From the IMG/VR virus record IMGVR_UViG_638276472_000001, positions 14,297 to 78,296 of that record: a stretch of DNA of 64,000 nucleotides; one strand, written 5' to 3'. Origin of the DNA: a virus. Taxonomy: Duplodnaviria > Caudoviricetes. Shown piece by piece: positions 9,372-64,000 of this stretch. Both the position numbers and the translations under genes were made by a program. The notes under the pieces are model-generated. The model did no database searches and was not told the origin of the DNA. It saw only the letters and a program-made list of their open reading frames with translations. Position 1 is the stretch's first letter; every line of letters starts with the position of its first letter.

Positions 9372-10967
9372 ATGTTCGAGGACGTAGACGAGTACCCGGC
9401 GAAGATTGAGATCTTCGGCTGGCAGAACACCGATTTGGATGTGAACCATCCTCACTACTTCTGCATCTCCGGTGACGGTAAGGGTGAGGAAGGCGCTATC
9501 TTGCGCCCAAATCTCAAGGGGGCCATTGACGCTCCGGTGAAGTCGTTGTGGCTTCCTGGTGCGTTCGGTCAGGTGTTCGTTGACTTCCGTTGGCAGCGTA
9601 GGGATGTCGTCTTCACCGTGTTCCTGTTTGACCCTGGTGACGATACGGCTTCCGGTTTCCACACTATCGACGCCCGTTGGCGTGCGTGCTGGGACTACGT
9701 CCGTGAGTCCACTATCCGCTGGACTTACCAGGACGAGACGATGGACGAGCCTGATGTGCGAATCATCAAGGCCCGCATGCTGGAAGAGCCGAAGTCGTAT
9801 TCGACTGACCCGTGGGAGGGTAAGGACCCTCACCTGTATCACTGCGCGAACATCGTGATGACCACGGCGTGCGAGCTTCCTTTCTATCAGGCCCCGAACA
9901 AGGTGTACACCTGGGTTCCCGAGGTGGGTGAGTTCGCCGCCGAGGTTGACTTCTCGACTATCGAGGACACTGAGATCCCCGTCGGGTTCGAATTGAAGTC
10001 CACGCTCGGCTCGGGTGGTGGCATGCAGGTCGTTGACGGCAAGTGGGTATGGGTGTCGTCGGGTTCTGTTGCGGCGGAACAGACTTACTTGTACACCGCT
10101 GGGGAGCCTGAGACCGACTTCTTCGAGGTGGCGATGAAGGTCTCGGCGCTTCCGGAGTTGGGCTTCAATCCCGGTGACACATGGTTGATCGGTCGCTCGG
10201 ATGACGACATGGACAACTTTGTGTTCTGCAAGATTGAGTACCAGATCGCAAACTTGGTGGCACTGGTGACCTTTGGGTACGTGAAGGACGGCGGTAACCC
10301 TGTCCCGCTTTCGATCCTCCCCACTGTCGTCACTGGTGTTTCACCAGGCGACACATGGTATTTCGCTGGGACGGGTAATACCACATTCCGCTTGAAGCTG
10401 AATGATCGCGTGGTCGCTCGCGGCAAGGATACTGGTGGGAACTCCCGCGTGGGTGCGGACTACCGTGGCGTTGGCTTCAAGTTCGCCGCCGCACCGACCT
10501 ACCTGTTTGGTCAGCATGAGCCTGCGCCCGTGTCTTTGGTGGCGTTCCGTGATGTTCCTACGGCTGATGAACAGGAACTCACCTTCGAGGTGACCAATGA
10601 TGGCGATGTGCCATGCTTCCCACGTTGGACCCTGACTGGGAATGCGGACTGGACTCTGCCCGATTATTCGTTCGGGAATGAAGAGTATGGTCGCCCAATC
10701 GAGGATGCGGATCGTGAAGTTCCATTGCCGCACTTGCCGATTGATGTTGGGTGTGTGGCGGATGCCGACCCCCGTCGCAGGACTTTGATGGCTGACGACA
10801 GGTCGCACCTTCAGGGCCGCTGGAAGGGTCAGGATCTTCTATATCCGATTCCGCATGGCACACATACGATTACGGTTCGCGTAGCCAACGCTGAGGATGG
10901 GTTCGCCATGAGGCTTGAACTCCCACAGTGGTTTACGCGTCCATGGGGAAGGGTTGATGAGCTGTGA
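9372..10967 (+). CDS. minor tail protein (distal tail-like) with internal beta-rich insertion
   Basis: First gene after TMP. VTNDGDVPCFPRWTL and PQWFTRPWG motifs. Confidence 0.85.
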   Translation: MFEDVDEYPAKIEIFGWQNTDLDVNHPHYFCISGDGKGEEGAILRPNLKGAIDAPVKSLWLPGAFGQVFVDFRWQRRDVVFTVFLFDPGDDTASGFHTIDARWRACWDYVRESTIRWTYQDETMDEPDVRIIKARMLEEPKSYSTDPWEGKDPHLYHCANIVMTTACELPFYQAPNKVYTWVPEVGEFAAEVDFSTIEDTEIPVGFELKSTLGSGGGMQVVDGKWVWVSSGSVAAEQTYLYTAGEPETDFFEVAMKVSALPELGFNPGDTWLIGRSDDDMDNFVFCKIEYQIANLVALVTFGYVKDGGNPVPLSILPTVVTGVSPGDTWYFAGTGNTTFRLKLNDRVVARGKDTGGNSRVGADYRGVGFKFAAAPTYLFGQHEPAPVSLVAFRDVPTADEQELTFEVTNDGDVPCFPRWTLTGNADWTLPDYSFGNEEYGRPIEDADREVPLPHLPIDVGCVADADPRRRTLMADDRSHLQGRWKGQDLLYPIPHGTHTITVRVANAEDGFAMRLELPQWFTRPWGRVDEL

Positions 10968-46854: not shown

Positions 46855-46927
46855 GCCCCCATACCGGCGCGGTCCCCTACACCGTGAGCCGTAATGGACG
46901 ATGCAGGTTCGAATCCTGTTGGGGGCG
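46855..46927 (+). tRNA. D-armless tRNA-like gene, anticodon CCT (Arg?)
   Basis: Perfect acceptor GCCCCCA/TGGGGGC and canonical T arm. No D stem, 17-nt variable region. Confidence 0.6.
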
Positions 46928-53042: not shown

Positions 53043-53057
53043 CCCCCGTATCTCCTC

Positions 53058-53237
53058 TCAGCAGTGTCGGCGCGTAGCCTTCCCCGCGTGGTGGAAGTAT
53101 CCGCACTGGCAGTGGTAGACCTGCATCGGTCGGGCCTTCCCTTTGCCACGCCGAGCGCGACGCTCCATGTCACGAATCGCTTTCTTGGCCTGAGCTTTTG
53201 TGCTGAAGGCTTCCTTGTATGGGTTCGGGCAAGTCAT
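53058..53237 (-). CDS. small basic Zn-finger-like protein (59 aa, not in ORF track)
   Basis: MTCPNPYKEAF...VYHCQCGYFH, TGATG overlap. Confidence 0.7.
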   Translation of the reverse strand: MTCPNPYKEAFSTKAQAKKAIRDMERRARRGKGKARPMQVYHCQCGYFHHAGKATRRHC

Positions 53238-53728
53238 CAGAGATCCGCTTCCCGTGCTAGGTAGTCGATCACGGCATCGTCGTCCTTGCCCGCGATCAGC
53301 ATCTCCAGCGCTGTCAGGACTGCGTCGCGCTTCAGCATTGAGCTGAACAGGTAGTAGGTAACGTTCTCTTCAAGGCCCAGCATTTTCGCTGCCAGGTCAG
53401 GCACGTAGTACAGCTTCCCGTCGTATTCGACTGTCCGCAGGAGCAGTGAGGTCACCCGTTGTGCGCGGCAGTTGGTATCGAATTCGAAGATGGTGTCCAA
53501 GTCGTGAGGCTTGGCACCGTTGAGCAGTACCGTCCACCCTGCCGAGCATGCTGCCGTGCCACAGGTGAGGGGGGCGGTGTGCATCGCCTTGCGATATTCG
53601 CCGAGGTATTCGTTGATCCTGTTTGGGTGAAGGTCCACGGAGACCCGGCCCCAGATTGTCTGATCGTGTGCGTCGGGGTGCTCCGACAGGAAGTGGTGCA
53701 ACCCCATCAGCGCGAGTGTGTTCCTCAT
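53237..53728 (-). CDS. hypothetical protein
   Basis: HPDAHDQTIW...CGTAACSAGW family, SD GAAAGGA. Confidence 0.8.
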   Translation of the reverse strand: MRNTLALMGLHHFLSEHPDAHDQTIWGRVSVDLHPNRINEYLGEYRKAMHTAPLTCGTAACSAGWTVLLNGAKPHDLDTIFEFDTNCRAQRVTSLLLRTVEYDGKLYYVPDLAAKMLGLEENVTYYLFSSMLKRDAVLTALEMLIAGKDDDAVIDYLAREADL

Positions 53729-53761
53729 GATTTCCTTTCCGTCCCAATACTTTTGGGATCG

Positions 53762-53801
53762 TGGGGTGCCGGGAATCGAACCCGGTTGAACCATTCACCC
53801 C
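53762..53801 (-). ncRNA. mini tRNA-like element (acceptor plus T arm)
   Basis: GGGGTG-AATGGTTCAA-CCGGG-TTCGATT-CCCGG-CACCCC-A. Confidence 0.7.
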
Positions 53802-53808
53802 GACCTAT

Positions 53809-53976
53809 TTAGTTGTCGATTTCGTTGTGTACCAACGTCTTTCCGTCCTCACTCACGTGGGGGCGGCAGGGGCACGCGGCGCTCAGCTTGTGCTTGCCGA
53901 ATTTGTGCCCCGACCAGGCAAGCTGGTCCTGGTAGTTCAGGACGATGCTCCCGTGTGGGAAGTGGTGGTCACTCAT
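53809..53976 (-). CDS. small hypothetical protein (55 aa)
   Basis: H...CPCRPH...HN motif, ATGA overlap. Confidence 0.65.
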   Translation of the reverse strand: MSDHHFPHGSIVLNYQDQLAWSGHKFGKHKLSAACPCRPHVSEDGKTLVHNEIDN

Positions 53977-54242
53977 CGCAGGTCTCCAATCTTGCCGGTG
54001 TCCAGCATCCGGACACGCTTTCCCTTGTGGGTCAGGATGGTTCCCGCATCATCAGCGGATGTGTATCCGTCCAACTCAGCCTGGCGTGTGGTCACGTACC
54101 ACACCTCCAGTTCGGGATGCTTCGAGTTGACCTCTCGCGCAAGGTCTGTCGCGCCCTCCCAGTCTGTGGCCACGTCAGTGACCCGCTTGAAGTGATTCGC
54201 GCGCGGCTTGCGATACGCGATGGTCCAGTAGTTCTTACCCAT
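53973..54242 (-). CDS. hypothetical protein
   Basis: 89 aa in operon. Confidence 0.75.
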   Translation of the reverse strand: MGKNYWTIAYRKPRANHFKRVTDVATDWEGATDLAREVNSKHPELEVWYVTTRQAELDGYTSADDAGTILTHKGKRVRMLDTGKIGDLR

Positions 54243-54245
54243 GAT

Positions 54246-54524
54246 TCACACCACCTTGATTTGTTCGGGTCGGAAGAAGCGGTCCAGCTTCCTCCCCTTG
54301 CGTCCACCTACGAAAGCCAGCGTCACCGCGCCGGTCTCCGTGTTCACCTCCGCGTACTGGAAGGTGAAGAGTTCCGCGTGCTTGCCCTTGGCCGTGCGTA
54401 CACGTACCTCAGTGCCACGCTCCAGCACTTTCTTGCCCAGTCGGTAGGAATCGTGCCGCTCCCACCCTGGGCGCTCCACGAGGGGCTTGTAGCGCTTGGG
54501 TCCGATGGTTGACTTGACGTTCAT
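54246..54524 (-). CDS. hypothetical protein
   Basis: SD AAGGGG, MNVKSTIG... Confidence 0.75.
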   Translation of the reverse strand: MNVKSTIGPKRYKPLVERPGWERHDSYRLGKKVLERGTEVRVRTAKGKHAELFTFQYAEVNTETGAVTLAFVGGRKGRKLDRFFRPEQIKVV

Positions 54525-54525
54525 G

Positions 54526-54771
54526 TCAGTTCCCCTTCTCTGCCTGATTGATGATGCTGATGTAGTAGTTGATCTTCGCTTGCACGTCGGACTCTCCGAC
54601 TGCCTTGATCGCGGCCACGTCGTCCTCGTCCCAGTACTCACCCGGTTCGGGGTAGAACACGTGCGACTGCGGTTCGTGCTCGAAGACTTCGGGGTCGATC
54701 TTCCCCTGGTCCACTTTCTCGTGAACCGCATCCATCAGTGCGTTCAGGATGATGTCTTGTGCTGCGCTCAT
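54526..54771 (-). CDS. hypothetical protein
   Basis: SD GGAGA, MSAAQDII... Confidence 0.75.
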   Translation of the reverse strand: MSAAQDIILNALMDAVHEKVDQGKIDPEVFEHEPQSHVFYPEPGEYWDEDDVAAIKAVGESDVQAKINYYISIINQAEKGN

Positions 54772-54859
54772 TTCTCCATTCCTTTCTAACCTGTTGCCTC
54801 TCAACAGATTTGGAAGTACCCCACCTGAAATAGCATGGGGTACAACCAGACTCATTGAG

Positions 54860-55018
54860 TCAGCGGGTACGCATCCGACCGTTGGTCTTGGTCAGTCGTA
54901 CCTTCTCGGCTTCCCTCTTCGTGCGACGGAAGCCCACCCACACACGACGTGTGGAGTTGACGTGGTACACGTGGTAACCCTGGCCACGCCCGCCCTTGAT
55001 CTCGTAGTTTCCGTTCAT
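54860..55018 (-). CDS. small hypothetical protein
   Basis: SD GGAGGAA, MNGNYEIK... Confidence 0.6.
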   Translation of the reverse strand: MNGNYEIKGGRGQGYHVYHVNSTRRVWVGFRRTKREAEKVRLTKTNGRMRTR

Positions 55019-55238
55019 CCGATCTTTCCTCCCATCCATGCCCTGAGGGGGAACCACAGGGACACCATCACCATGACCACGTAGCCCGTAGTCACTGCTC
55101 TTCCTTCCATGCGTCGATGCCCTCAACCTTGAGGTTGTTCACGATGGCATCGGCTTGCGTGCGACTCAGCCCAGTTGAAATGAACGCGGGCCTACCGTCT
55201 TGGCCAGTGATCCATACTTCGTACATCGTTGTCTCCCT

Positions 55239-55460
55239 TCAGAAGTGGGGATGCTCAGTGATGAACTCCGCCACCATCTTTCGTTTCTTCCATGTCCTCC
55301 GGATGATCGTGATGCCGAAGGTGGTGCCAAATGAGTTGATGGACACCGGGATTGAATCTGTCTCCACGAATGTCCATCCACGCTTCACGAACCAGTGCGT
55401 CGGGTCGTTGAGCTTGCGCCACATCATGCGCTTCTCACCCTTGAACAGGACTTCAGACAT
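55239..55460 (-). CDS. hypothetical protein
   Basis: TAATG overlap. Confidence 0.65.
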   Translation of the reverse strand: MSEVLFKGEKRMMWRKLNDPTHWFVKRGWTFVETDSIPVSINSFGTTFGITIIRRTWKKRKMVAEFITEHPHF

Positions 55461-55798
55461 TAGCTGCAATCCCATTCCGGGTGACCCGTGTATCGGATCT
55501 CCACGGCACCGGCACCGGGCATGCCGTAGTCACCGAGTGGTGCGTAGGCGTATTCCTCGTCCATATCCCCATTCCAGTACAGGGTCCCTGTGTAGTAGAG
55601 GATCTTGTCGTCGTCGTACATCCGGAACTGTGCATGGTGTTCGTAGTTGTGCGCCAACTCTTTTCGTGTGTCGTCGTAGTTGTCTGCTGCTGTGGTGTTC
55701 GCATCACGCGGTCCCACAACACCTTTGGCATCAGACAGGAAGTCATATGCCGGGTCGTACAGGTGATCCTTGTCGATGATCCATGCATAGTCAGACAT
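55460..55798 (-). CDS. hypothetical protein
   Basis: FRMYDDDKILYYTG motif, SD AGGGAG. Confidence 0.8.
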   Translation of the reverse strand: MSDYAWIIDKDHLYDPAYDFLSDAKGVVGPRDANTTAADNYDDTRKELAHNYEHHAQFRMYDDDKILYYTGTLYWNGDMDEEYAYAPLGDYGMPGAGAVEIRYTGHPEWDCS

Positions 55799-56006
55799 GA
55801 AGTGCTCCCTTCACCAGTTCCCGTGCTGACCGGTCGAGCTTGAGGTACGGCTCGAACTGTTCGGGCAGGTATTCGCGGCGGTCGAAATCGGTTATGCCAT
55901 CGTCCACAACGTAAGCCCATTGCTGGCTGTAGTTCAGCCAAACCCACAGTGTGCCTTGAGCATCCACCACAACCTCGTCGTCTATGGACACATCGATTGC
56001 CTTCAT
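55791..56006 (-). CDS. hypothetical protein
   Basis: Coupled ORF, MKAIDVS... Confidence 0.7.
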   Translation of the reverse strand: MKAIDVSIDDEVVVDAQGTLWVWLNYSQQWAYVVDDGITDFDRREYLPEQFEPYLKLDRSARELVKGALHV

Positions 56007-56260
56007 CAGTACCCCTTTCTGAGTACGTCCATGTGCATTGCTGTTGCTGTCTTCAATGCACGCTTGATCCCATCTCTCTTGTGCACCAACCGAATTGGTA
56101 CCTCTGCACCTGCACCATGCAGGTACCACCAACCATCATCACAGGTGACCCAGTGCCCTTCGCATCTCCATTCATTGATGGAATGCCGAAACCATTGCCA
56201 CCCACCGATATACAGCGAGTGGTTCAGGTAGTCGGGCTTGGGGTACGGCTTGGCCCACAT
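56006..56260 (-). CDS. hypothetical Trp-rich protein
   Basis: TGATG overlaps. Confidence 0.7.
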   Translation of the reverse strand: MWAKPYPKPDYLNHSLYIGGWQWFRHSINEWRCEGHWVTCDDGWWYLHGAGAEVPIRLVHKRDGIKRALKTATAMHMDVLRKGY

Positions 56261-56664
56261 CAGCTGTAGTGCCGATCACCTTGGTAGACATGGGAACCCG
56301 CGATGGTTTCCACTGTCACCCAATACGTTTCTTCACCGTCCACCTCCCGCAAAAAATCCTCCGGCAGGTTGCGTGACTCCAGCCACTCCAGTTCCGCCGC
56401 GCACTGACGGTTGAACTGATCCTTGGCTTCCGCTGTCAGGACTTCTGCGAGTTGACGCACGTCGTCCTCTAGGGCACGCGCCTCTTCCTCCGTGTTGACC
56501 TTGTGGTAGGCCACCAGTTCGGTGTCGCGCCCCCACCACCCACCTTCCTCCGGACCTCCATAGAACGGAACGTCACGGTAAAGGCTTACGAAGTAAGCAC
56601 TTTCGGCAGGCTTGGCATCCTTGATGATGGAGAAGAACGCATCCTTGATGGTCTTGTCACTCAT
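56260..56664 (-). CDS. hypothetical protein
   Basis: YGGPEEGGWW motif. Confidence 0.8.
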   Translation of the reverse strand: MSDKTIKDAFFSIIKDAKPAESAYFVSLYRDVPFYGGPEEGGWWGRDTELVAYHKVNTEEEARALEDDVRQLAEVLTAEAKDQFNRQCAAELEWLESRNLPEDFLREVDGEETYWVTVETIAGSHVYQGDRHYS

Positions 56665-56711
56665 TGTTCTCTCTCTTCCTGTTGTGGCGCAGTGCTTTTC
56701 ACTGCACCTCG

Positions 56712-56752
56712 TGCGCTGCCTGGGAGTCGAACCCAGGTACACCATTCAGCGC
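56712..56752 (-). ncRNA. mini tRNA-like element (acceptor plus T arm)
   Basis: GCGCTG-AATGGTGTA-CCTGGG-TTCGACT-CCCAGG-CAGCGC-A. Confidence 0.7.
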
Positions 56753-56765
56753 TCCCTCTATTCAG

Positions 56766-56990
56766 TTATCCAGCGTCGATATATCCCATTGGCCCATCGA
56801 AGTACCCATCATGGTTGTGCGGAATCAGAGGGTGTACCTCGTCTCTGTGGAATGCTGCCCGCTCGCCCTCATCGAATACCACGACGACGTTGGCCCACGT
56901 GGAATTGCCCAGGATGTTGCTGACGGTTCCAACCCCGCGACCGTGGACGACGACACGCTGGCCACGGTAATGCGTTGCGACTGGGTACAT
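56766..56990 (-). CDS. small SH3/KOW-like hypothetical protein
   Basis: GQRVVVHGRGVGTV, SD GGAG. Confidence 0.7.
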   Translation of the reverse strand: MYPVATHYRGQRVVVHGRGVGTVSNILGNSTWANVVVVFDEGERAAFHRDEVHPLIPHNHDGYFDGPMGYIDAG

Positions 56991-56991
56991 T

Positions 56992-57171
56992 TCAGAACTC
57001 CGCTTTCTCGATGGTCTTGTCTTCAACACGAATGATCTTGCCTCCCACGTTGATTCGCATTGCGTAGTCCGGTAGCACCTGGACCACGCGTCCGAATCGC
57101 GTTCGACCCGTGCGCTCATCCTTGAATGACACGAAGTCACCCGTGATGATGGACGCTGTGTTGTTGGACAT
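56992..57171 (-). CDS. small SH3/KOW-like hypothetical protein
   Basis: GDFVSF...GRVVQV, SD AGGGAG. Confidence 0.7.
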   Translation of the reverse strand: MSNNTASIITGDFVSFKDERTGRTRFGRVVQVLPDYAMRINVGGKIIRVEDKTIEKAEF

Positions 57172-57270
57172 GCTCACTCCCTGTTTGTTGTTGCGGCCCA
57201 AGACTTTTGAGCTCGCGATAATTTTGCAGAACTCTTTATAACCACTGCCGTGGCCATTTTCGGCCTATTT

Positions 57271-57585
57271 CTAGGCCGCCCAGACTCGCCCCCGGTTATC
57301 CAGTTTGGCGTACTGCGAGTACCTGACCGGAAAAGGACTGTCCGGTAGTTTGACAGTCTTACCATCGAAAGTCAGACTCTCCCAATCGATTTCGGGAGCT
57401 GATTCAGCTTCGAGTCCGGCGATGATCATGTGACCCTTGTGATGGACACGGAACTCTGGTGCGTGCAGCACCAATTCGCGGACAAACCTGGGTTGCTTTC
57501 CACGTTGGATTACCACCCAGGTATTGCCACGCGTATTCCGTTCCACAACGACTACGGGCACACGTGTCCCGTTGTTGCCTGACAA
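57271..57585 (-). CDS. hypothetical protein
   Basis: TTG start after GGGAGAGAA. Confidence 0.7.
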   Translation of the reverse strand: MSGNNGTRVPVVVVERNTRGNTWVVIQRGKQPRFVRELVLHAPEFRVHHKGHMIIAGLEAESAPEIDWESLTFDGKTVKLPDSPFPVRYSQYAKLDNRGRVWAA

Positions 57586-57632
57586 CAATTCTCTCCCTTC
57601 CATTGCTGGCCAACACGTTTGGTTGACCTAGT

Positions 57633-57683
57633 GGACTGTGGCACGTTTGAAGTGCCTTACCACCCAGGATTTGGGTACAGTCC
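57633..57683 (-). ncRNA. 51-nt tRNA-like three-way junction (class I)
   Basis: GGACTGT-ACCCA aatcc TGGGT-GGTAA-GGCAC ttcaaac GTGCC-ACAGTCC. Confidence 0.75.
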
Positions 57684-57692
57684 TCCCCTGGC

Positions 57693-57974
57693 TCACATCA
57701 GGGATTCAATGGCCCATGGATCGGACCAATTGATGTGCTGAACCTCAGCGTCATATGAACCCGCAACGGACGCAACGTGATACGCATTGCCATTGATCAG
57801 AACCGTTGTGGTGTACCGATATTCGCGCGGCAACCATTCCGTACGGACGATGGCATATCCGTGACGTGTGAGGACACGTTCACGATGAATCAGCCTGACC
57901 GGAGACACACTGATCCCGTGGTAGGGAAGTGAGTCCAGAGTAGGCAGACTGATGGCGCTGGCTGAATTCTGCAT
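57693..57974 (-). CDS. hypothetical protein
   Basis: SD AAGGAGAG. Confidence 0.75.
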   Translation of the reverse strand: MQNSASAISLPTLDSLPYHGISVSPVRLIHRERVLTRHGYAIVRTEWLPREYRYTTTVLINGNAYHVASVAGSYDAEVQHINWSDPWAIESLM

Positions 57975-58024
57975 TTCGATTCTCTCCTTATTCCATTGCA
58001 GGACAACCAATCTGATGTCCCAGC

Positions 58025-58058
58025 GCTATGCGAGTTTGGCCTAGTTCCCTCGCATAGC
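58025..58058 (-). ncRNA. 10-bp hairpin with conserved 14-nt loop (class III)
   Basis: GCTATGCGAG-GGAACTAGGCCAAA-CTCGCATAGC. Confidence 0.65.
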
Positions 58059-58066
58059 CTTGTGCC

Positions 58067-58342
58067 TCAAGCGATTTGAGACTCGCCTAACACCTTGCAT
58101 CCGTAGCACAATGACCCGTCCCCCGTGAGGAACAGTTCACCCATGGCGTACTCATGTGCGCAGTGATCACACAACAACGTGTCACCTTCCCTCAGCACAT
58201 CACTCTCACTGATGGTTTCTGATGGCTCAACGTTGATCTGAGGGACGAACCTGGGCACCACGGTGCGACGCCGACCCCAGGCACTACGCGTATGTCTGCG
58301 GCGGGCACGGAAGGTCAGCATGATCGTTTCGTTCACTTCCAC
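58067..58342 (-). CDS. hypothetical protein with CxxC...CxxC
   Basis: CDHC...CYGC. Start position uncertain. Confidence 0.7.
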   Translation of the reverse strand: MEVNETIMLTFRARRRHTRSAWGRRRTVVPRFVPQINVEPSETISESDVLREGDTLLCDHCAHEYAMGELFLTGDGSLCYGCKVLGESQIA

Positions 58343-58605
58343 ACCTCCACAGCGTGGCGCATTGCGCGCGTACCAACTTCGATCATCGTCCGTTTGGCAT
58401 GCTCATCGTCCCCAGGTGAGTAGTACTCACCATGGGCAACGTTCACGCGTCCCACGGCAGGGTCGGAGCTGGCCATGGTCACCACGTACCGATATCGGTT
58501 GGTGTGGTACCCGTGTCCCATGCTCCATGCGCGGGAGACGATCAGACGGAACTTACCGTCAGTCTTCACGTACGTATCGTCTGTTTCCGCAACATGTTTC
58601 GACAT
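58333..58605 (-). CDS. hypothetical protein
   Basis: SD GGAGAG. Confidence 0.75.
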   Translation of the reverse strand: MSKHVAETDDTYVKTDGKFRLIVSRAWSMGHGYHTNRYRYVVTMASSDPAVGRVNVAHGEYYSPGDDEHAKRTMIEVGTRAMRHAVEVWK

Positions 58606-58652
58606 TTCTCTCTCCATTCTCATTGTTGGCCAACGTGTTTCATTGGCCTAGC

Positions 58653-58686
58653 TCCCTAGTGGTTTGACCTAGTTCCCCACTAGGGA
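58653..58686 (-). ncRNA. 10-bp hairpin with conserved 14-nt loop (class III)
   Basis: TCCCTAGTGG-GGAACTAGGTCAAA-CCACTAGGGA. Confidence 0.65.
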
Positions 58687-58693
58687 TATCGGA

Positions 58694-58945
58694 CTACTCC
58701 GACATGATGCGTAGCGCTGCGAGCATGCCATCTACGAAGGTGGCCGCTTCCCGCAACGTGTCCGTGTAGAGCAACACGGTAATTCCCCCGTGTTCACTCA
58801 CCACGCGTTGAATCTGCACGGTGCCCATGGCGCGGTACAGCCGGATTGACCCAACAGTGTTGTATTCAACGTGGGAGAATCCCAATTTCCCGTTGAGTAC
58901 AGCCAACTTGGCATCCACAATTCGCCCAGTGATTCGATGCGCCAT
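58694..58945 (-). CDS. hypothetical protein
   Basis: SD GGAGAG, MAHRITGR... Confidence 0.75.
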   Translation of the reverse strand: MAHRITGRIVDAKLAVLNGKLGFSHVEYNTVGSIRLYRAMGTVQIQRVVSEHGGITVLLYTDTLREAATFVDGMLAALRIMSE

Positions 58946-58990
58946 TGTTCTCTCCATTCTCATTGTGAGGCAACGGGATTGCTGCCTAGT

Positions 58991-59041
58991 GCCCATGGGT
59001 ACGTTTGAAGTACCTAACCGGACACGTTGTGTCCCATGGGC
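58991..59041 (-). ncRNA. 51-nt tRNA-like three-way junction (class I)
   Basis: GCCCATG-GGACAC aac GTGTCC-GGTTA-GGTAC ttcaaac GTACC-CATGGGC. Confidence 0.75.
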
Positions 59042-59050
59042 TTTCACGTT

Positions 59051-59416
59051 CTACTTGTGATAGAACGCGTAGTCGGAATTCAGCCAGGGAAGCGTGCGAC
59101 CGTCACGGTACCGGAATTCCATGCTCCCATTCTTGATACCGACATGAATGCCAGTGTTAGCGAACAGAATTCGATCCAAACGGTTCGCTGTGGTACGTGT
59201 GACGTACCCACCATTGCTGACCCAGGTTTGCCGCGAGGACACGATGGCAATCACTGTGTTGTGATGCCTGACTTCAATTGCTGGCACGGGCACTGCATGT
59301 CCCTCTGTCGTCTCTCGCACCCAGGTTGCATAGGCAATTTTCACCCAGGTACGGGAACCGTTGGCCAGCGCGTGAAGGTTGGCATATGTCATCGCGGGAA
59401 GCTGAAGGTTCGTCAT
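59051..59416 (-). CDS. hypothetical protein
   Basis: NGGYVTRTTANRL motif family, SD AGGAGAG. Confidence 0.8.
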   Translation of the reverse strand: MTNLQLPAMTYANLHALANGSRTWVKIAYATWVRETTEGHAVPVPAIEVRHHNTVIAIVSSRQTWVSNGGYVTRTTANRLDRILFANTGIHVGIKNGSMEFRYRDGRTLPWLNSDYAFYHK

Positions 59417-59460
59417 TTTTCTCTCCTATTCCATTGGGGCTCAACGGATTTGAGCCTCGT

Positions 59461-59511
59461 ACCCATGGGCACGTTTGAAGTGCCTTACCGGACGCATTGC
59501 GTCCCATGGGT
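59461..59511 (-). ncRNA. 51-nt tRNA-like three-way junction (class I)
   Basis: ACCCATG-GGACGC aat GCGTCC-GGTAA-GGCAC ttcaaac GTGCC-CATGGGT. Confidence 0.75.
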
Positions 59512-59522
59512 TTTCGGTTGAC

Positions 59523-59843
59523 CTAGCGGTTCAACCATTCTTCGTACTGCGCTTCAAGCTCTTCAAACCTCAGCCGCGCGGCGAAGTTGCTTCCGTACGT
59601 TTCGATGAACACCAGACCATCAGTGTTCTCACGCACCACGAAGGACCCTGTGAGTTCATCGTCCGAAACGTCACCATAGGTTTCGATCTCTTCCTCGAAA
59701 GCATCACGGATACTGGCCAACTCAGTCGGAAGGTTGGTGACATATGCGAAGTGTCCCGTGGGGGACTCAACGTCACCGGAGCTTGCAGTGAACCAGCCGC
59801 CGGAAACCATTGCGACGAAAAGGTTCTCGATTGCAGTCTTCAT
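59523..59843 (-). CDS. hypothetical acidic protein
   Basis: SGDVESPTGHF motif, SD AGGAGAG. Confidence 0.8.
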   Translation of the reverse strand: MKTAIENLFVAMVSGGWFTASSGDVESPTGHFAYVTNLPTELASIRDAFEEEIETYGDVSDDELTGSFVVRENTDGLVFIETYGSNFAARLRFEELEAQYEEWLNR

Positions 59844-59889
59844 TGTTCTCTCCTATCCCATTGCGAGACAACCGATTTGGTGTCTCAGT

Positions 59890-59940
59890 ACCCATGGCTA
59901 CGTTCGAAGTAGCTGACCGGACGCTAAGCGTCCCATGGGT
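59890..59940 (-). ncRNA. 51-nt tRNA-like three-way junction (class I)
   Basis: ACCCATG-GGACGC tta GCGTCC-GGTCA-GCTAC ttcgaac GTAGC-CATGGGT. Confidence 0.75.
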
Positions 59941-59949
59941 TTTCGTTAT

Positions 59950-60225
59950 TTACTTGTGAGTGACCCCGACACTGACGAACACGCTCCGGTAAACGTCACC
60001 GTACTGATCAGCGCGTCCGGACTTCACAATGTGAAGGCTGAACTGTTGTCCCCCAACGTATTTGCGCGCTTTGGGGTACATTTCCGCGAGCCGTTCCGTT
60101 TCCTCGTCAGACCGCTTCAGCGCTGCGGGCAACGTGTCGAAGGTACCCAACACGTAGCTTCGCTGAACCTCAGCGTCCGGATGGCCCACGGTCTGGTCAA
60201 TCTCCCACAGTGTCACTTTGAACAT
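59950..60225 (-). CDS. hypothetical protein
   Basis: SD GGGAGG. Confidence 0.75.
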   Translation of the reverse strand: MFKVTLWEIDQTVGHPDAEVQRSYVLGTFDTLPAALKRSDEETERLAEMYPKARKYVGGQQFSLHIVKSGRADQYGDVYRSVFVSVGVTHK

Positions 60226-60226
60226 T

Positions 60227-60511
60227 TCAGTAGTCCTCCCCTGCGAAGTGAACAGTGATGTACGCGTGAATGGTTTCCTGCCCGATGGTCGAACCTTCCT
60301 GTGTCGGTTGACCATTCACGTACAACGTTGCGTTTTTCAGTCCGAACATTTCGATGACCGTACTCACCACTTGAGTAGGTGACATCATTTGACCACCGAT
60401 ACCGCCCAACATGAATGTTGGTGTCTCCAGTACCTTTGATGTGGTGCGTGCATTCTTCGTCTGAATCGTCTTGTAAACACGGACATCCACGTAGTGATTA
60501 CCGAAATTCAT
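60227..60511 (-). CDS. hypothetical protein
   Basis: SD AGGAGAG. Confidence 0.75.
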   Translation of the reverse strand: MNFGNHYVDVRVYKTIQTKNARTTSKVLETPTFMLGGIGGQMMSPTQVVSTVIEMFGLKNATLYVNGQPTQEGSTIGQETIHAYITVHFAGEDY

Positions 60512-60558
60512 TGTTTTCTCTCCTATCCTTTGTGCGGCAACGTGTTTCGTTACCCAGT

Positions 60559-60618
60559 GTCCCGTGTTGCTTCGATGGCCTACCACCCACACATACGAAA
60601 TGTGTTGTGGCACGGGAC
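60559..60618 (-). ncRNA. structured element class II
   Basis: GTCCCGTG/CACGGGAC closing stem, CCAC..GTGG arm, TAGGCCATCGAAGCAA. Confidence 0.6.
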
Positions 60619-60630
60619 CGTTGCTTGTTG

Positions 60631-60894
60631 TTACCAGTGAACGAAGATTGGTTCCAGCACGAAATTTCCACGATGGTCACGTTCGGGAAGCTCTCGCACC
60701 CAACCAAGGTATGCGTCAAAGAACACGGTAGGCCATGGGACCTCGTGCCCATTGTCATCATGCAGTTGGTGCTTCCCCGTGAAATTGGGAGGCACTTCGT
60801 TCGTGATGTCATACGCCTCGTCCCCATATCCCAGGTCGGACGGTTCTACCTCGTCCCAGGCGGGGGATACGCGCTTCACAGCAAGCTTGATCAT
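60631..60894 (-). CDS. hypothetical protein
   Basis: SD AGGAGAG. Confidence 0.75.
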   Translation of the reverse strand: MIKLAVKRVSPAWDEVEPSDLGYGDEAYDITNEVPPNFTGKHQLHDDNGHEVPWPTVFFDAYLGWVRELPERDHRGNFVLEPIFVHW

Positions 60895-60943
60895 TTGTTC
60901 TCTCCTATCCTTGTGTGTGGCAATCCATTTCGGATTACCTAGC

Positions 60944-61001
60944 GCACTGTGTTGCTTCGATTGCCTACCACCTACACATGAAATGTGTTGTGGCACAGTG
61001 C
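60944..61001 (-). ncRNA. structured element class II
   Basis: GCACTGTG/CACAGTGC closing stem, CCAC..GTGG arm, TAGGCAATCGAAGCAA. Confidence 0.6.
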
Positions 61002-61009
61002 TTGATGCT

Positions 61010-61303
61010 CTACTTTGCGTAGAGTTCTTTGACCGCCAATTGCATGTCATCCAACTTTTGTCTCGTCTCCCATACTTCGCCTTCGAAGGTGGGCATGAAG
61101 ACTAGATACAGTGCCCGCCATGCACCTTCGATCTCGGTGGCACGCGTTTTGATCGCCGCACGTGAATCGTAGGAAGGGTGATCTTTGAAAGCTCGCACAC
61201 GGTCTACCAGGAAGCGCGCTTCCGTGTGGATGTGGGAAAGCATGGCGTGCAGTGCTTTGGCATCTTCGTGCTGGTCCAACTTGGCATCACTTGACTTCAG
61301 CAT
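61010..61303 (-). CDS. hypothetical protein
   Basis: SD GGAGAG. Confidence 0.75.
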   Translation of the reverse strand: MLKSSDAKLDQHEDAKALHAMLSHIHTEARFLVDRVRAFKDHPSYDSRAAIKTRATEIEGAWRALYLVFMPTFEGEVWETRQKLDDMQLAVKELYAK

Positions 61304-61350
61304 TTGTTCTCTCCATTCTCATTGTGAGGCAATGCGTTTCATTGCCTAGT

Positions 61351-61401
61351 ACCCATGGTCACGTTCGAAGTGACTGACCGGACACGTTGTGTCCCATGGG
61401 C
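61351..61401 (-). ncRNA. 51-nt tRNA-like three-way junction (class I)
   Basis: GCCCATG-GGACAC aac GTGTCC-GGTCA-GTCAC ttcgaac GTGAC-CATGGGT. Confidence 0.75.
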
Positions 61402-61408
61402 TTTCGGA

Positions 61409-61591
61409 CTAGCTGAAGCTATGTCCATACTCTTGATCGCTTGCGTAGTCTGTCCATCCTGCGATGAACGCGTTGACCTGGGTTGAACCGTGACGTTCTT
61501 CGAACCTCGTCTCAGCCGCACCCAGGTCATAGGTGGTTGTACGTTTGGACGCGTCCCAACCTTTGCGGTAGGCCTGACTTGCGTTGATCAT
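61409..61591 (-). CDS. hypothetical protein
   Basis: AYRKGWDAS...AFIAGWTD (Rmf-like repeat pattern). Confidence 0.75.
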   Translation of the reverse strand: MINASQAYRKGWDASKRTTTYDLGAAETRFEERHGSTQVNAFIAGWTDYASDQEYGHSFS

Positions 61592-61621
61592 TTCTCTTGT
61601 CTCCCTTGTGTGTTGGGTAAA

Positions 61622-61834
61622 TCAGTGAGTGTAAAAATCCGAAATGTCTTGAAGCGCATCACGTTTGGTGTAAACGGGATCGAATTGCAGCTGACCTTCC
61701 ATATCAGTGATGTACCAAAGCCATTCACTCCCCCAGTCGGCGGGGGATTGCTTGTGCTCGATACGGAAGTAGTGCGAAGGTGTGGTCACGTCGTATAGGC
61801 CAGCGCGAACACGCTTCACGATCATATTCTTCAT
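61622..61834 (-). CDS. hypothetical protein (first gene of leftward operon)
   Basis: SD AGGGAGG, RAGLY...W...YTKRDA motif. Confidence 0.8.
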   Translation of the reverse strand: MKNMIVKRVRAGLYDVTTPSHYFRIEHKQSPADWGSEWLWYITDMEGQLQFDPVYTKRDALQDISDFYTH

Positions 61835-61874
61835 TTCGTCCTCCCTTGTGGCGCAACGTGTTTCGTTGCTTCGT

Positions 61875-61925
61875 GCCCGTGAGTGTTCCGATGATGACTC
61901 TTACGATTCAAGATGAATCACGGGC
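61875..61925 (-). ncRNA. 51-nt divergent class I-like three-way junction
   Basis: GCCCGT-GATTCA tct TGAATC-GTAA-GAGT catcatcggaac ACTC-ACGGGC. Confidence 0.55.
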
Positions 61926-61929
61926 AAAC

Positions 61930-64000
61930 ACAATGGATTTGGAAAGAGAGAAGGCTGACACCAGAACCGAACCCGACTGTCTCACAAGCCAATTGGATTT
62001 TCACAGTGTTACAACGATTCGAACGGACCATCTGTGTTCACGGTGTCTGGTAGATCGCCTCAAGTGAGGTGAGAGCTGAACCGCTGGTGTAGGACCACGT
62101 CACCAGGAAAGACCTGGGATAGGTGACCATCACAGCGCATGTGCCAATTGCTGCCGGTAGGTGTGCCAGCTATTTAGTTCTCATGCCTTCCGCGCGCTCT
62201 CATTGCGCTTCCCGTGCCCGAAGGTTTCGGTTCTGCGGTACTCCGGTACGAATGACCCGTGTCAGGTAGTCACCCGCTGAGCTGTACCCTCACGCTTTCG
62301 CGTCAGGCCTCGGCTCTGCCGGTAGGTCACCCCCCCGCGCGGGGCGAAGGTGGTGGTTAGCGGTTCCCAGGGCATGCGGTCCCGCTCACAACCACCATCA
62401 TTCCCCAGGTGGTCAAGTGCTGCCCTGGTCACCAGGGAGAACGTCACCAGGGCGGCACACCTGGGTGTGCAGTGACCCCAGAGGGCACATCCCGACCAGG
62501 GCACTTCCACGGAGAGTGACGAACGGACTTACCCATGTGCGATTGCTACCAGGAAGGTTGTCAGTCTGTTAGATCTTGATTCAGGGGCCATTCTGTACAT
62601 TTGCCCAGGTCAGCCCAGGTATGGGTGCTTGCTGTTGTTAGCACTGTGTTAGCGCTCGATACATAGCCTGACCAGGCTTTATAACAGTCTGGTAACGATA
62701 CTTGCTACCACCTGACATAATGTAATCGAAAAGCTTTCGGTAAGCATGTACTTAGACAGTCTTCCTAGATTCATGTTCTAATGTCAGGACAAAGGTTTGT
62801 CAGGACAAAGGTCGGATTTTGGCCTGGCCCAGGTACGTACCCAAAACATCGAAATGATTGCGTCCCAACGTGTTTCGGAAATGCCTTGTGGCACAACGGG
62901 AAATACCTTGTTCAGTCCTGACGGTGTTCACCTGGGATGAACCGCACGGGACACTGAACACGTCCTGGGCACACCTACACATGGGCACGGACACCAATTC
63001 CCCAAACACGTTGCCACACCGTCTGATTGAGCCCGGGAATGGCCAAACCTGTTGCGTCCCATAGTCGGTACCCATGGCGCTATGGCATGCCCTGTAGACA
63101 CACCTGGGGGTCATATGGACTGTATGACTGATGGTCTAACCATTGTCTGGTGAATGGATTAACCATCACACAATCACACCATCGAATTGCCCAATGGTCT
63201 AACCATCAAATCTTGAAATGGTATGACCTCAGACCGTAGGACCGTATGGCCAGAATTCACCCCTGGGCTGAATGGCATTGGGGGACATAGGGAATGGTGC
63301 TTGTATGGCTCTCAGAATGGCCAAATGTGTTGTGGCGCAACGGTGCCCAGAGGTTTGGCCGCAAAAGGAGAAAAAGGACCTTTGAACCACAATTCAACCC
63401 TTCTGCAATACAGCCGTATAGGCCTACAGGGAATGGACGCTATACGCATATACAGCACTAGCCCCATATGGCGCTCACCTACACCCAGGGAATGGCATGC
63501 GCACCCAATAGTGAATGGGCTCACAATGGCGTGATTCGCTCTCACACAATGGCCAGACTGGTAAATGGGAATGGCTCACAGGGTTGATAAAGGTGCGCTC
63601 AACTCTATCAAGATCAGTTGTTTAGCCTGTCAAAAGGAAATCTGAGTTATCTGTAACCGCATCAAGATCAGTATGTGTTACCGGCCTGCCAGTTAAGGTC
63701 AGACCAATGCCCTGACCAGGCACTATGCAAGTGTGAATATGGGTCATCCTGGGGAAATGCACCAAACATGCAGGTCAGAGGCTTAGTTAGCACATCAAAC
63801 ACAGGTTGTGAACATGCAGGTCAAGACGACTTACAGATGCAGATGAATGGTGGCAACAATGGCCAATTCCAAGTTTGCCCAGAAGCATTCAAGCCAGCAA
63901 ACAACGCACTCTGACCAGGCAATATGCCGAGGATGTGAGGTGCCAGCAACGTGCATCCGTTTGCCAGGGGGGGTACCCCGAGCTGCGAAATGGCCGGACA
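61930..64000. other. apparently non-coding right-terminal region with short repeats
   Basis: No ORF with a credible SD, lower GC, several repeated motifs. Ends in GGGGGGGTACCCC. Confidence 0.6.
63131..63206. repeat. three ATGG-N5-CCAT inverted-repeat boxes
   Basis: ATGGTCTAACCAT at 63131 and 63194, ATGGATTAACCAT at 63154. Confidence 0.7.

Follow-up and report, generated by a model that had tools for sequence, protein, structure and literature searches.

Miniature tRNA-like elements in the spacers of an early operon of a Wildcat-type mycobacteriophage, and their possible role as RNA punctuation

The window analysed here is a stretch of 64,000 nucleotides (nt) of viral DNA, positions 14297-78296 of the 78,296-base-pair (bp) phage genome recorded in IMG/VR as IMGVR_UViG_638276472_000001. 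Between 57000 and 62000 it shares 98.6% identity with Mycobacterium phages Cosmo and Azrael100 and 97.3% with EniyanLRS (genus Wildcatvirus), and the source genome is that of a Wildcat-type mycobacteriophage. Its right end carries a series of small minus-strand genes, and seven of the spacers between them harbor RNA elements built as the top half of a transfer RNA (tRNA), an acceptor-like stem stacked on a T-arm. Five form one family, termed class I, while two others, e1 and e2, are smaller and closer to known tRNA and transfer-messenger RNA (tmRNA) sequences. All seven lie on the sense strand of one operon, with covarying stems and a common A-C context at the 3' edge. As seven spacers of a single operon show tRNA top-half features, a chance resemblance is unlikely. 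The reading tentatively favoured, to which we assign slightly less than an even chance, is that the elements serve as RNA punctuation cut by host tRNA-maturation nucleases, the resulting ends being protected by the tRNA-like 3' module and by a 5' hairpin.

Five copies of class I had been claimed in the first-pass annotation of this DNA, which was made from the letters alone; they are present where it placed them, each 51 nt long and read on the minus strand. Each opens with one strand of a 7-bp closing stem and continues through a 15-nt hairpin and a GGTNA linker to a 5-bp stem, whose 7-nt loop reads TTCRAAC; the 3' closing strand follows that stem directly, without a spacer nucleotide. The minimum-energy structure of all five copies is the same three-way junction (z-scores of -2.1 to -4.3), in which the 7-bp closing stem stacks on the 5-bp stem carrying the TTCRAAC loop. 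RNAalifold finds 18 pairs across the five copies, 12 of them with compensatory changes. For the named structure 99.1% of cells are paired, compared with 20-37% in slid controls, and none of 500 shuffles reaches any of five measures. The copy at 57633 alone supplies most of the covariation of the closing stem and first hairpin, while the T-stem covaries among four different forms; these T-stem variants, and the complete replacement of the closing stem at 57633, are as originally quoted. Throughout class I the stems covary around a constant T-loop, a constant GGT linker and two unchanging loop-proximal pairs. The folds and the RNAalifold pairs together support the 7+5 geometry of a tRNA top half, and its covariation, that had been proposed.

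A covariance model built from the five copies (R1) was run on the 64-kb window with filters off. It returned the five copies at 67.9-78.1 bits, followed by a match of 13.2 bits that lies opposite one of them, on the reverse strand, a separation which places class I beyond chance; on the whole 78,296-bp genome it found those five and no others. The divergent sixth copy that had been proposed at 61875-61925 does not belong to class I, as it scores 12.1 bits with R1 (E-value 0.67), contains no T-arm and adopts a different minimum-energy fold. Coordinates of all features are collected in Table 1.

Table 1. Structured spacers and associated features of the early leftward operon (window coordinates).
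Feature	Position	Strand	Description
Class I, gap of genes 169/168	61351..61401	-	R1 75.4 bits; minimum-energy fold a three-way junction; begins 7 nt past the upstream stop
Class I, gap of genes 165/164	59890..59940	-	R1 75.8 bits; same fold; begins 9 nt past the stop codon
Class I, gap of genes 164/163	59461..59511	-	R1 78.1 bits; fold z -4.28; begins 11 nt past the stop codon
Class I, gap of genes 163/162	58991..59041	-	R1 78.1 bits; same fold; begins 9 nt past the stop codon
Class I, gap of genes 159/158	57633..57683	-	R1 67.9 bits; same fold; closing stem and first hairpin fully replaced
e1	56712..56752	-	6-bp closing stem, 10-nt linker with GGT, T-arm with loop TTCGACT, one unpaired base, closing strand
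e2, miniature tmRNA-type tRNA-like domain	53762..53801	-	6-bp closing stem, 10-nt linker with GGT, T-arm, closing strand, A-C
Other structured spacer, nearer class II (proposed sixth copy)	61875..61925	-	51 nt; 7-bp closing stem; 71% identity over 52 nt to class II cassette 60526-60577
Class II spacer (published Motif 2)	60560..60617	-	8-bp closing stem, long hairpin, weak 2-bp arm with 7-nt loop containing ATCGAA
Class II spacer, copy two	60944..61001	-	Closing stem covaries with copy one
Class III spacer	58653..58686	-	10-bp hairpin, conserved 14-nt loop
Class III spacer, copy two	58025..58058	-	Other stem, identical loop
Cassette downstream half	61304..61350	-	Unpaired A-C-T-A, covarying hairpin B, CAATG..GGAGAGAA ribosome-binding stretch, start codon
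Same downstream layout after other elements	59844-59889, 59417-59460, 58946-58990, 57604-57632	-	From gap sequences and folds
Early leftward transcription unit containing all elements	53048..62350	-	Cover by contigs of two RNA libraries

When compared with canonical tRNA, class I shows the stacking of a 7-bp acceptor stem on a 5-bp T-stem whose loop has 7 nt, and the T-loop letters T54, T55, C56, R57 and A58 are present, as TTCRAAC in all five class I copies and as TTCGAYT in e1 and e2. The D-arm and the anticodon arm with its 7-nt loop are absent; class I has a single hairpin with a loop of 3-5 nt, and e1 and e2 have none. It had further been suggested that the GG of the linker docks on the T-loop in the manner of the D-loop G18G19. 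In class I such docking looks sterically strained, because the GG sits at the junction, just where the first hairpin ends, with five base pairs between it and the loop. It seems more plausible in e1 and e2, where the 10-nt linker aligns with the D-loop analogue of tmRNA.

Elements e1 and e2 emerged from a T-arm scan of the sense strand, as two extra tRNA-like cassettes outside the range first reported. Both lack a first hairpin and join 6-bp and 5-bp stems with canonical T-arms; they differ from one another at three stem pairs, changed on both sides with none broken, and each is identical across all four genomes of the cluster. Element e2 begins 7 nt past the stop codon of gene 145, and the A-C that closes it is followed by a hairpin, a ribosome-binding site and a start codon; e1 is likewise followed by A-C, a hairpin, a Shine-Dalgarno sequence and a start codon. 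Over 26 positions of the variable loop and T-arm of the phage tRNA-Leu(tag), e1 agrees at 22, and the T-arm of e2 matches that of the phage tmRNA at all 19 positions. The Rfam tmRNA model RF00023 aligns e2 from its first to its last position, skipping a 328-nt body, with a score of 18.1 bits (E-value 1.5e-4) against a gathering score of 47; it has no match to e1 or class I. The canonical T-arms of e1 and e2, together with the alignment of one of these elements to the tmRNA domain, strengthen the tRNA reading. The G3-U70 pair serves the alanine charging of tmRNA; in e2 and e1 the third pair is G-C, and in class I it is C-G. An alignment of class I with e1 and e2 by MAFFT was misaligned and was discarded. 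The annotated 185-amino-acid gene 144 starts at an ATG within the e2 linker (53794, minus strand), with an in-frame ATG at 53728; the 163-amino-acid form looks likelier, because ATG 53728 comes after the hairpin and the GGAAAGGAAA ribosome-binding stretch, as in the other cassettes.

The distribution of T-arms over the whole genome was assessed with a pattern requiring a perfect 5-bp stem around a TTCRANN loop and, after it, 6 nt of closing strand. The plus strand gave 19 tRNAs and one odd match, and the minus strand the five class I copies, e2 and one odd match, with a mean of 0.17 in shuffled genomes; e1 is missed solely because of its one unpaired base.

The phage tRNAs themselves, 23 genes together with one tmRNA gene, lie on the plus strand at 44.5-49 kb and offer a reference for the 3' context. 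For each of the seven elements (five class I, e1 and e2), the first two bases past the 3' edge are an unpaired A and a C. Among the phage tRNAs the T-arm pattern matched 20 of the 23 examined; in these A is the commonest discriminator, a C follows the discriminator in 19 of the 20, and CCA is encoded in one. A PolyA_pol-family protein of 401 amino acids is encoded on the minus strand at genome positions 1547-2752, in the other early leftward block outside the window. It carries the PolyA_pol head and RNA-binding domains, and its best match is an actinobacterial CCA tRNA nucleotidyltransferase model at 267 bits, below the model cut-off of 438.8; from its sequence it is a putative enzyme of the CCA-adding type. 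Between tRNA-Gly and tRNA-Gln, at 46855-46927 (plus strand), a T-arm with loop TTCGAAT and a 7-bp acceptor-like stem occur together; uncalled by ARAGORN and Rfam, this may be a degenerate or unusual tRNA.

The minus-strand orientation, originally argued from the T-loop, is borne out by leftward-only RNA sequencing (RNA-seq) in the published work (PMC7474061), by the T-loop pattern, which fits the minus strand only, and by G-U pairs. Counted strictly (flanked by Watson-Crick pairs), helix-internal G-U pairs number 4 on the sense strand and 0 on the antisense strand, and counted loosely 14 and 7, which is modest support; in the 59890 copy a C-to-T change in three relatives turns a G-C pair into a G-U pair in the minus-strand reading only. 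Folding energies do not separate the two strands. Contigs of two RNA libraries (runs X1 and X2, from one study) cover 53048-62350 and none lies in 62542-63275, a region which a DNA run does cover; the cover at 53048-62350 is therefore RNA rather than carried-over DNA. At the element 59890-59940 the contigs break, with 59877-59935 uncovered in X1 and 59834-59959 in X2, and other X2 breaks also overlap spacers; no conclusion is drawn from contig gaps. A loose X2 contig end at 53785 raised the candidate of an attP-like tRNA fragment, which was rejected: the overhang corresponds to phage tmRNA sequence that adjoins, on the upstream side, the T-arm shared with e2, and the end is accordingly taken as a tmRNA contig placed partly on e2. 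In a comparison with Cosmo, 1 of the 334 positions in the seven elements and 54 of 4682 in coding sequence are different, a weak signal.

The operon was also scanned for conventional signals. Sigma-70-like promoters (two hexamers with 16-18 nt spacing) number 0 in 56500-64000, against 4.3 in shuffles, although the scan is a weak test because the operon's own first promoter is also missed by it. Terminator-like sites, for which a G+C-rich hairpin must precede a U-tract on the transcribed strand, are at chance level (7 against 6.7). On the minus strand no element coincides with one, and the first structure has no U-tract after it in the sense reading; two plus-strand terminator-like sites coincide with the first hairpin of two copies.

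The same array has been described as Wildcat genes 143-171, a set of 29 that includes 12 host-toxic genes (Ko and Hatfull, 2020; PMC7474061). According to that paper, 11 of the 15 gaps in the segment of genes 155-170 are 80-100 bp long, and gene content is mosaic. Its strand-specific RNA-seq shows early transcription to be leftward only, with a shark-tooth profile whose low points fall at the ~100-bp gaps; the authors report finding no promoter or terminator and consider many genes possibly independently expressed. Their Motif 1, 60 bp at 75% identity in the intervals 162-163, 163-164, 164-165 and 168-169, corresponds to four of the five class I copies, the 57633 copy being absent from these intervals, and their Motif 2 is the same DNA as the two class II copies (PMC7474061). 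In the section devoted to them the motifs are presented merely as 60-bp and 45-bp sequence similarities, with no fold, strand, covariation or tRNA likeness given and the 57633 copy, e1 and e2 unmentioned (PMC7474061). The feature is already published in part, as an unexplained sequence motif, while the tRNA top-half reading and the set of seven spacers are new here.

The array as a whole is a repeated cassette. On the sense strand each unit runs from a stop codon through 7-13 nt to a first structure, a purine, a C, a second hairpin, a ribosome-binding stretch and a start codon; the second hairpin, denoted B, starts 2-5 nt past the C that comes after the unpaired A. The first structure is of class I in five cases, class II in two and class III in two, with the odd one at 61875; class II at 60560 occupies the same cassette slot as class I. 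The spacers are mutually alike at 66-80% identity, unlike the 16 proteins that flank them, which are mutually unrelated (best match E-value 0.024 over 23 residues). The motif ACTAGG is not enriched across the whole window (14 occurrences, 13.3 expected). Relative to Cosmo, 9 of 186 positions are changed in the class II and III spacers, several times the rate of either coding sequence (54/4682) or the tRNA-like elements (1/334). The second hairpin has a 12-nt core, present without mismatch at 60538 and 61854, which recurs at 62866-62877 (plus) and 63002-63013 (minus), once exactly and once with one mismatch. The presence of this core in both orientations in a stretch lacking RNA cover hints at a DNA-level binding site or at old cassette relics.

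If the elements are indeed punctuation, they would act as cis-acting RNA modules of the long leftward early transcript, each folding 7-13 nt past a stop codon. The 6-7-bp stem, stacked directly on a 5-bp stem with a T-loop, would present the tRNA top half that tRNA-maturation enzymes recognise, and host tRNA-processing nucleases would cut the polycistronic RNA there. The 5' edge would be cut by RNase P. At the 3' edge the cut would fall between the unpaired A and the invariant C and would be made by RNase Z or by mycobacterial RNase E, which prefers cytidines. The tRNA-like 3' end could then be capped by a CCA-adding enzyme of host or phage origin. The downstream mRNA would begin 2-5 nt before the second hairpin, which would shield its 5' end and present the ribosome-binding site. 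In favour of this scheme stand the shared fold and covariation, the top-half features of seven spacers in one operon, the A-C context, the putative CCA-adding protein, the likeness of the spacers between unrelated flanking proteins, the weak conservation signal against Cosmo, the lack of promoter and terminator signals in the scans and the published RNA-seq profile. Two findings from mycobacteria are also on its side. The tRNA-like domain of Mycobacterium smegmatis YrlA, with its 7-bp acceptor-like stem, is reported to be cut by RNase P in vitro and to receive CCA in vivo (Chen et al., 2014; PMC4201824), and mycobacterial RNase E is described as cleaving single-stranded RNA 5' of cytidines (PMC10641625).

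Several observations weigh against this scheme. Of the RNase E motif RN↓CNU, only the C is matched. The loop-closing pair of class I is C-G in all five copies where tRNAs have G53-C61; a G stands beside the loop on its 5' side in all 20 pattern-matched phage tRNAs, and G-C closes the loops of e1 and e2. Rfam, searched over 57400-62200 with E-values up to 10, has no match to class I, and ARAGORN in standard mode calls no gene at class I (its mitochondrial mode makes 6 calls in 4.8 kb and is too permissive to carry meaning). RNA contigs run unbroken across six of the seven elements, so that fragments spanning those element-flank junctions exist and any cutting is incomplete. Furthermore, the RNA-library evidence consists of assembled contigs, which are unable to reveal RNA ends; while the fold, covariation, sense-strand and operon positions, tRNA/tmRNA likeness and A-C context are demonstrated, each cleavage step, the enzymes and the protective roles are what we infer. 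Consensus promoters occur in the spacers of related Rhodococcus phages, which favours separate transcription units there. The cassette slot, moreover, does not strictly require a tRNA mimic, since classes II and III fill it and EniyanLRS (L005, 12295-12408) has class II, which is not tRNA-like, where the other three genomes have class I at 61351-61401. At that gap of genes 168/169 the second hairpin and ribosome-binding stretch of EniyanLRS are identical to those of the other genomes. The presence of class II in the place of class I makes the modules interchangeable, and the swap points to module exchange between spacers. Within the cluster, Cosmo and Azrael100 have five class I copies each and EniyanLRS four. 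Outside it, pattern searches of viral, metagenome and genome collections recovered no relative of class I or of e1 and e2, and as no relatives are found beyond the cluster, the covariation rests on paralogous copies within one genome.

The linker and T-arm pattern gave three matches in viral contigs, none folding like class I; a stricter version including the closing strand gave none in viral contigs and two metagenome matches, representing one identical sequence that does not pair; the e1/e2 pattern gave none in viral contigs. A general pattern gave 60 matches in genome contigs, which are taken as chance because the best R1 score is just 27.7 bits, compared with 68-78 for true copies. A blastn search of the phage collection with one whole spacer returned the three close relatives only, and a search for related loci with gp163 returned one weak partial match. 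R1 found nothing in PatrickStar, ReqiDocB7 and Phaux, and a T-arm scan of stretches from these three and from Perlina, GMA3 and Gibbles showed no complete minihelix in small-gene spacers.

The main rival, which we hold to be unlikely yet serious, is that the elements are generic structured spacers. In such a case any compact stable fold would serve, as a block to 3' exonucleases, as a ribosome insulator between cistrons or as a partial terminator; any cutting would occur in the short single-stranded purine-C linker, and the tRNA likeness would be a trace of origin from phage tRNA and tmRNA genes. The occurrence of three or four unrelated structure classes in the same slot, the replacement at one EniyanLRS site, and the purine followed by C after the first structure in all spacers are consistent with this, as is the resemblance of e1 and e2 to a phage tRNA and the phage tmRNA. 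The Rhodococcus and Gordonia relatives point the same way, since ReqiDocB7, Perlina and Orchid-type Gordonia phages encode gp163 or gp164 homologues in the same spaced layout, with plain long hairpins in the spacers. Mere stability, however, should not fix loops, and class I holds its T-loop, its GGT linker and the two pairs nearest that loop constant as its stems covary. Nor does it account for exact 7+5 stacking without spacer nucleotides, followed by A-C, in seven elements of at least two sequence types. A minihelix broken by a 10-nt loop, as in e1 and e2, is a poor choice for stability alone, and the sense strand has no U-tract.

An improbable alternative is that each small gene forms its own transcription unit, with the first structure ending the upstream transcript and the region of the second hairpin holding a non-consensus promoter. 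In the published RNA-seq every gap coincides with a low point, and the paper suggests that many genes may be expressed independently (PMC7474061). Furthermore, by the same promoter scan, six spacers in ReqiDocB7 (L016, 2960-7459) carry TTGACA, 17-18 nt and TAGACT on the gene strand, out of eight such sites on both strands and against 2.4 in shuffles. The equivalent spacers of Perlina (L022, 5902-10011) also carry TTGACA. In both phages a long covarying hairpin precedes the TTGACA, and these arrays look like a promoter-per-gene version of the layout. In the window region itself, however, the promoter scan, weak as it is, yields no such site, and by our reading most copies lack A2 and T6 of the -10 consensus in the conserved stretch after the second hairpin. 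Transcription beginning there would give a leader of ~10 nt, no U-tract follows the first structure, and the RNA contigs are continuous over six of the seven tRNA-like elements.

A role in trans is a long shot. If all seven elements were excised from the most abundant early transcript and CCA-tailed by the phage's own nucleotidyltransferase, a burst of free minihelices would result; these might serve as decoys or sponges for host factors acting on tRNA acceptor ends, and so protect early translation. Conceivable targets are nucleotidyltransferase toxins of the AbiEii/MenT abortive-infection type, other defences aimed at tRNA ends, and the tRNA-maturation enzymes; speculatively, the large tRNA set, the tmRNA and the CCA-adding enzyme would belong to the same counter-defence.

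Least probable of all, and very much so, is a DNA-level role as a protein-binding site or as a cassette-shuffling recombination site like an integron attC folded from one strand: unrelated small genes each followed by a structured repeat, the published mosaic gene content, the module swap between close relatives and the second-hairpin core in both orientations in the untranscribed right end speak for it, but the elements share one orientation in the most highly transcribed early RNA, their T-loop pattern and A-C context fit tRNA features and no known recombination core, and covarying stems with invariant loops argue for a folded single strand. Sites of the attC type neighbour an integron integrase and contain a GTTRRRY core; no integrase or site-specific recombinase is named among the annotated features of Azrael100, and the core was not formally searched.

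Embedded tRNAs or tRNA mimics that direct RNase P and RNase Z cuts, and so make the ends of their neighbours, are exemplified by mascRNA at the 3' end of MALAT1 and by the tRNA punctuation of animal mitochondria. These are eukaryotic or organellar and are full cloverleaves or mimics of them, unlike the elements described here. In the early genes of phage T7, RNase III sites are structured spacers cut by a host nuclease, with protective hairpins remaining; those sites are long double-stranded stems, whereas the helices here are probably too short for RNase III. The tRNA-like domain of tmRNA (RF00023), like the elements, combines an acceptor stem and T-arm without an anticodon arm, together with a single-stranded, GG-containing analogue of the D-loop. 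The elements differ in having no mRNA-like part, pseudoknots, G3-U70 pair or encoded CCA; e2 falls below the gathering score and class I is unmatched.

A parallel beside protein-coding genes is found in plant mitochondria, where t-elements, tRNA-like with a conserved T-arm, adjoin such genes and have ends that coincide with mRNA 5' or 3' ends (Forner et al., 2007; PMC1920247). As reported there, they are read as RNase P and RNase Z signals, and excised ones bear added C or CA. The tRNA likeness, the conserved T-arm and the position beside protein-coding genes are shared with class I. The t-elements are, however, degenerate full cloverleaves of ~70 nt from an organelle, found via the motif GGTTCRANYCC (PMC1920247), while class I is 51 nt long, lacks D- and anticodon arms, closes its T-loop with C-G, resides in a phage operon and has a proposed cleavage. 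The t-element motif occurs in e1 and e2 (GGGTTCGAYTCCC); class I keeps TTCRAAC without the flanking GG and CC. YrlA, like class I, is a tRNA mimic with a 7-bp acceptor-like stem and is found in the same host, M. smegmatis, but it is described as a free-standing non-coding RNA with mimics of both D- and T-arms and a Ro-binding module, rather than an mRNA spacer (PMC4201824). The start-associated sequences of Cluster K phages, whose function is given as unknown, are purine-rich, lie just upstream of start codons and are preceded by an imperfect inverted repeat; they recur in a single orientation at numerous genes (Pope et al., 2011; PMC3203893). They resemble the second hairpin and ribosome-binding stretch of the cassette; as described, their sequence is different and no tRNA-like module lies upstream, so the likeness concerns the downstream half of the cassette and not class I (PMC3203893).

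Were the cuts confirmed, the array would represent a bacteriophage operon in which miniature tRNA mimics provide tRNA-style punctuation. Punctuation of this style is otherwise known from mitochondria and a few eukaryotic long RNAs, and the literature searched contained no description of it for phages or mycobacteria, nor of tRNA-like elements in mycobacteriophages or phage operons. Such a mechanism would explain how the most strongly expressed early genes of Wildcat, often host-toxic, come to have ~100-bp gaps, no recognisable promoter or terminator and a saw-toothed RNA-seq profile. For mycobacteria it would, in addition, provide a compact, natural 51-nt part with which to split polycistronic RNAs, and it would help to identify the host nucleases that shape phage mRNAs.

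Two further observations may be added. An open reading frame at 58694-59047, whose 117 amino acids equal the length of Wildcat gene 162 in the table of the published study, spans the class I copy at 58991, while Cosmo annotates an 84-amino-acid form. On the gene strand of ReqiDocB7 (L016), the large gap between gp081 and gp080 contains a structure of ~130 nt at ~9991-10120, with a 7-8-bp acceptor-like stem, a canonical T-arm at 10096-10112 and two more arms; it is uncalled by ARAGORN and Rfam, and the corresponding position in Perlina is occupied by three genuine tRNA genes.

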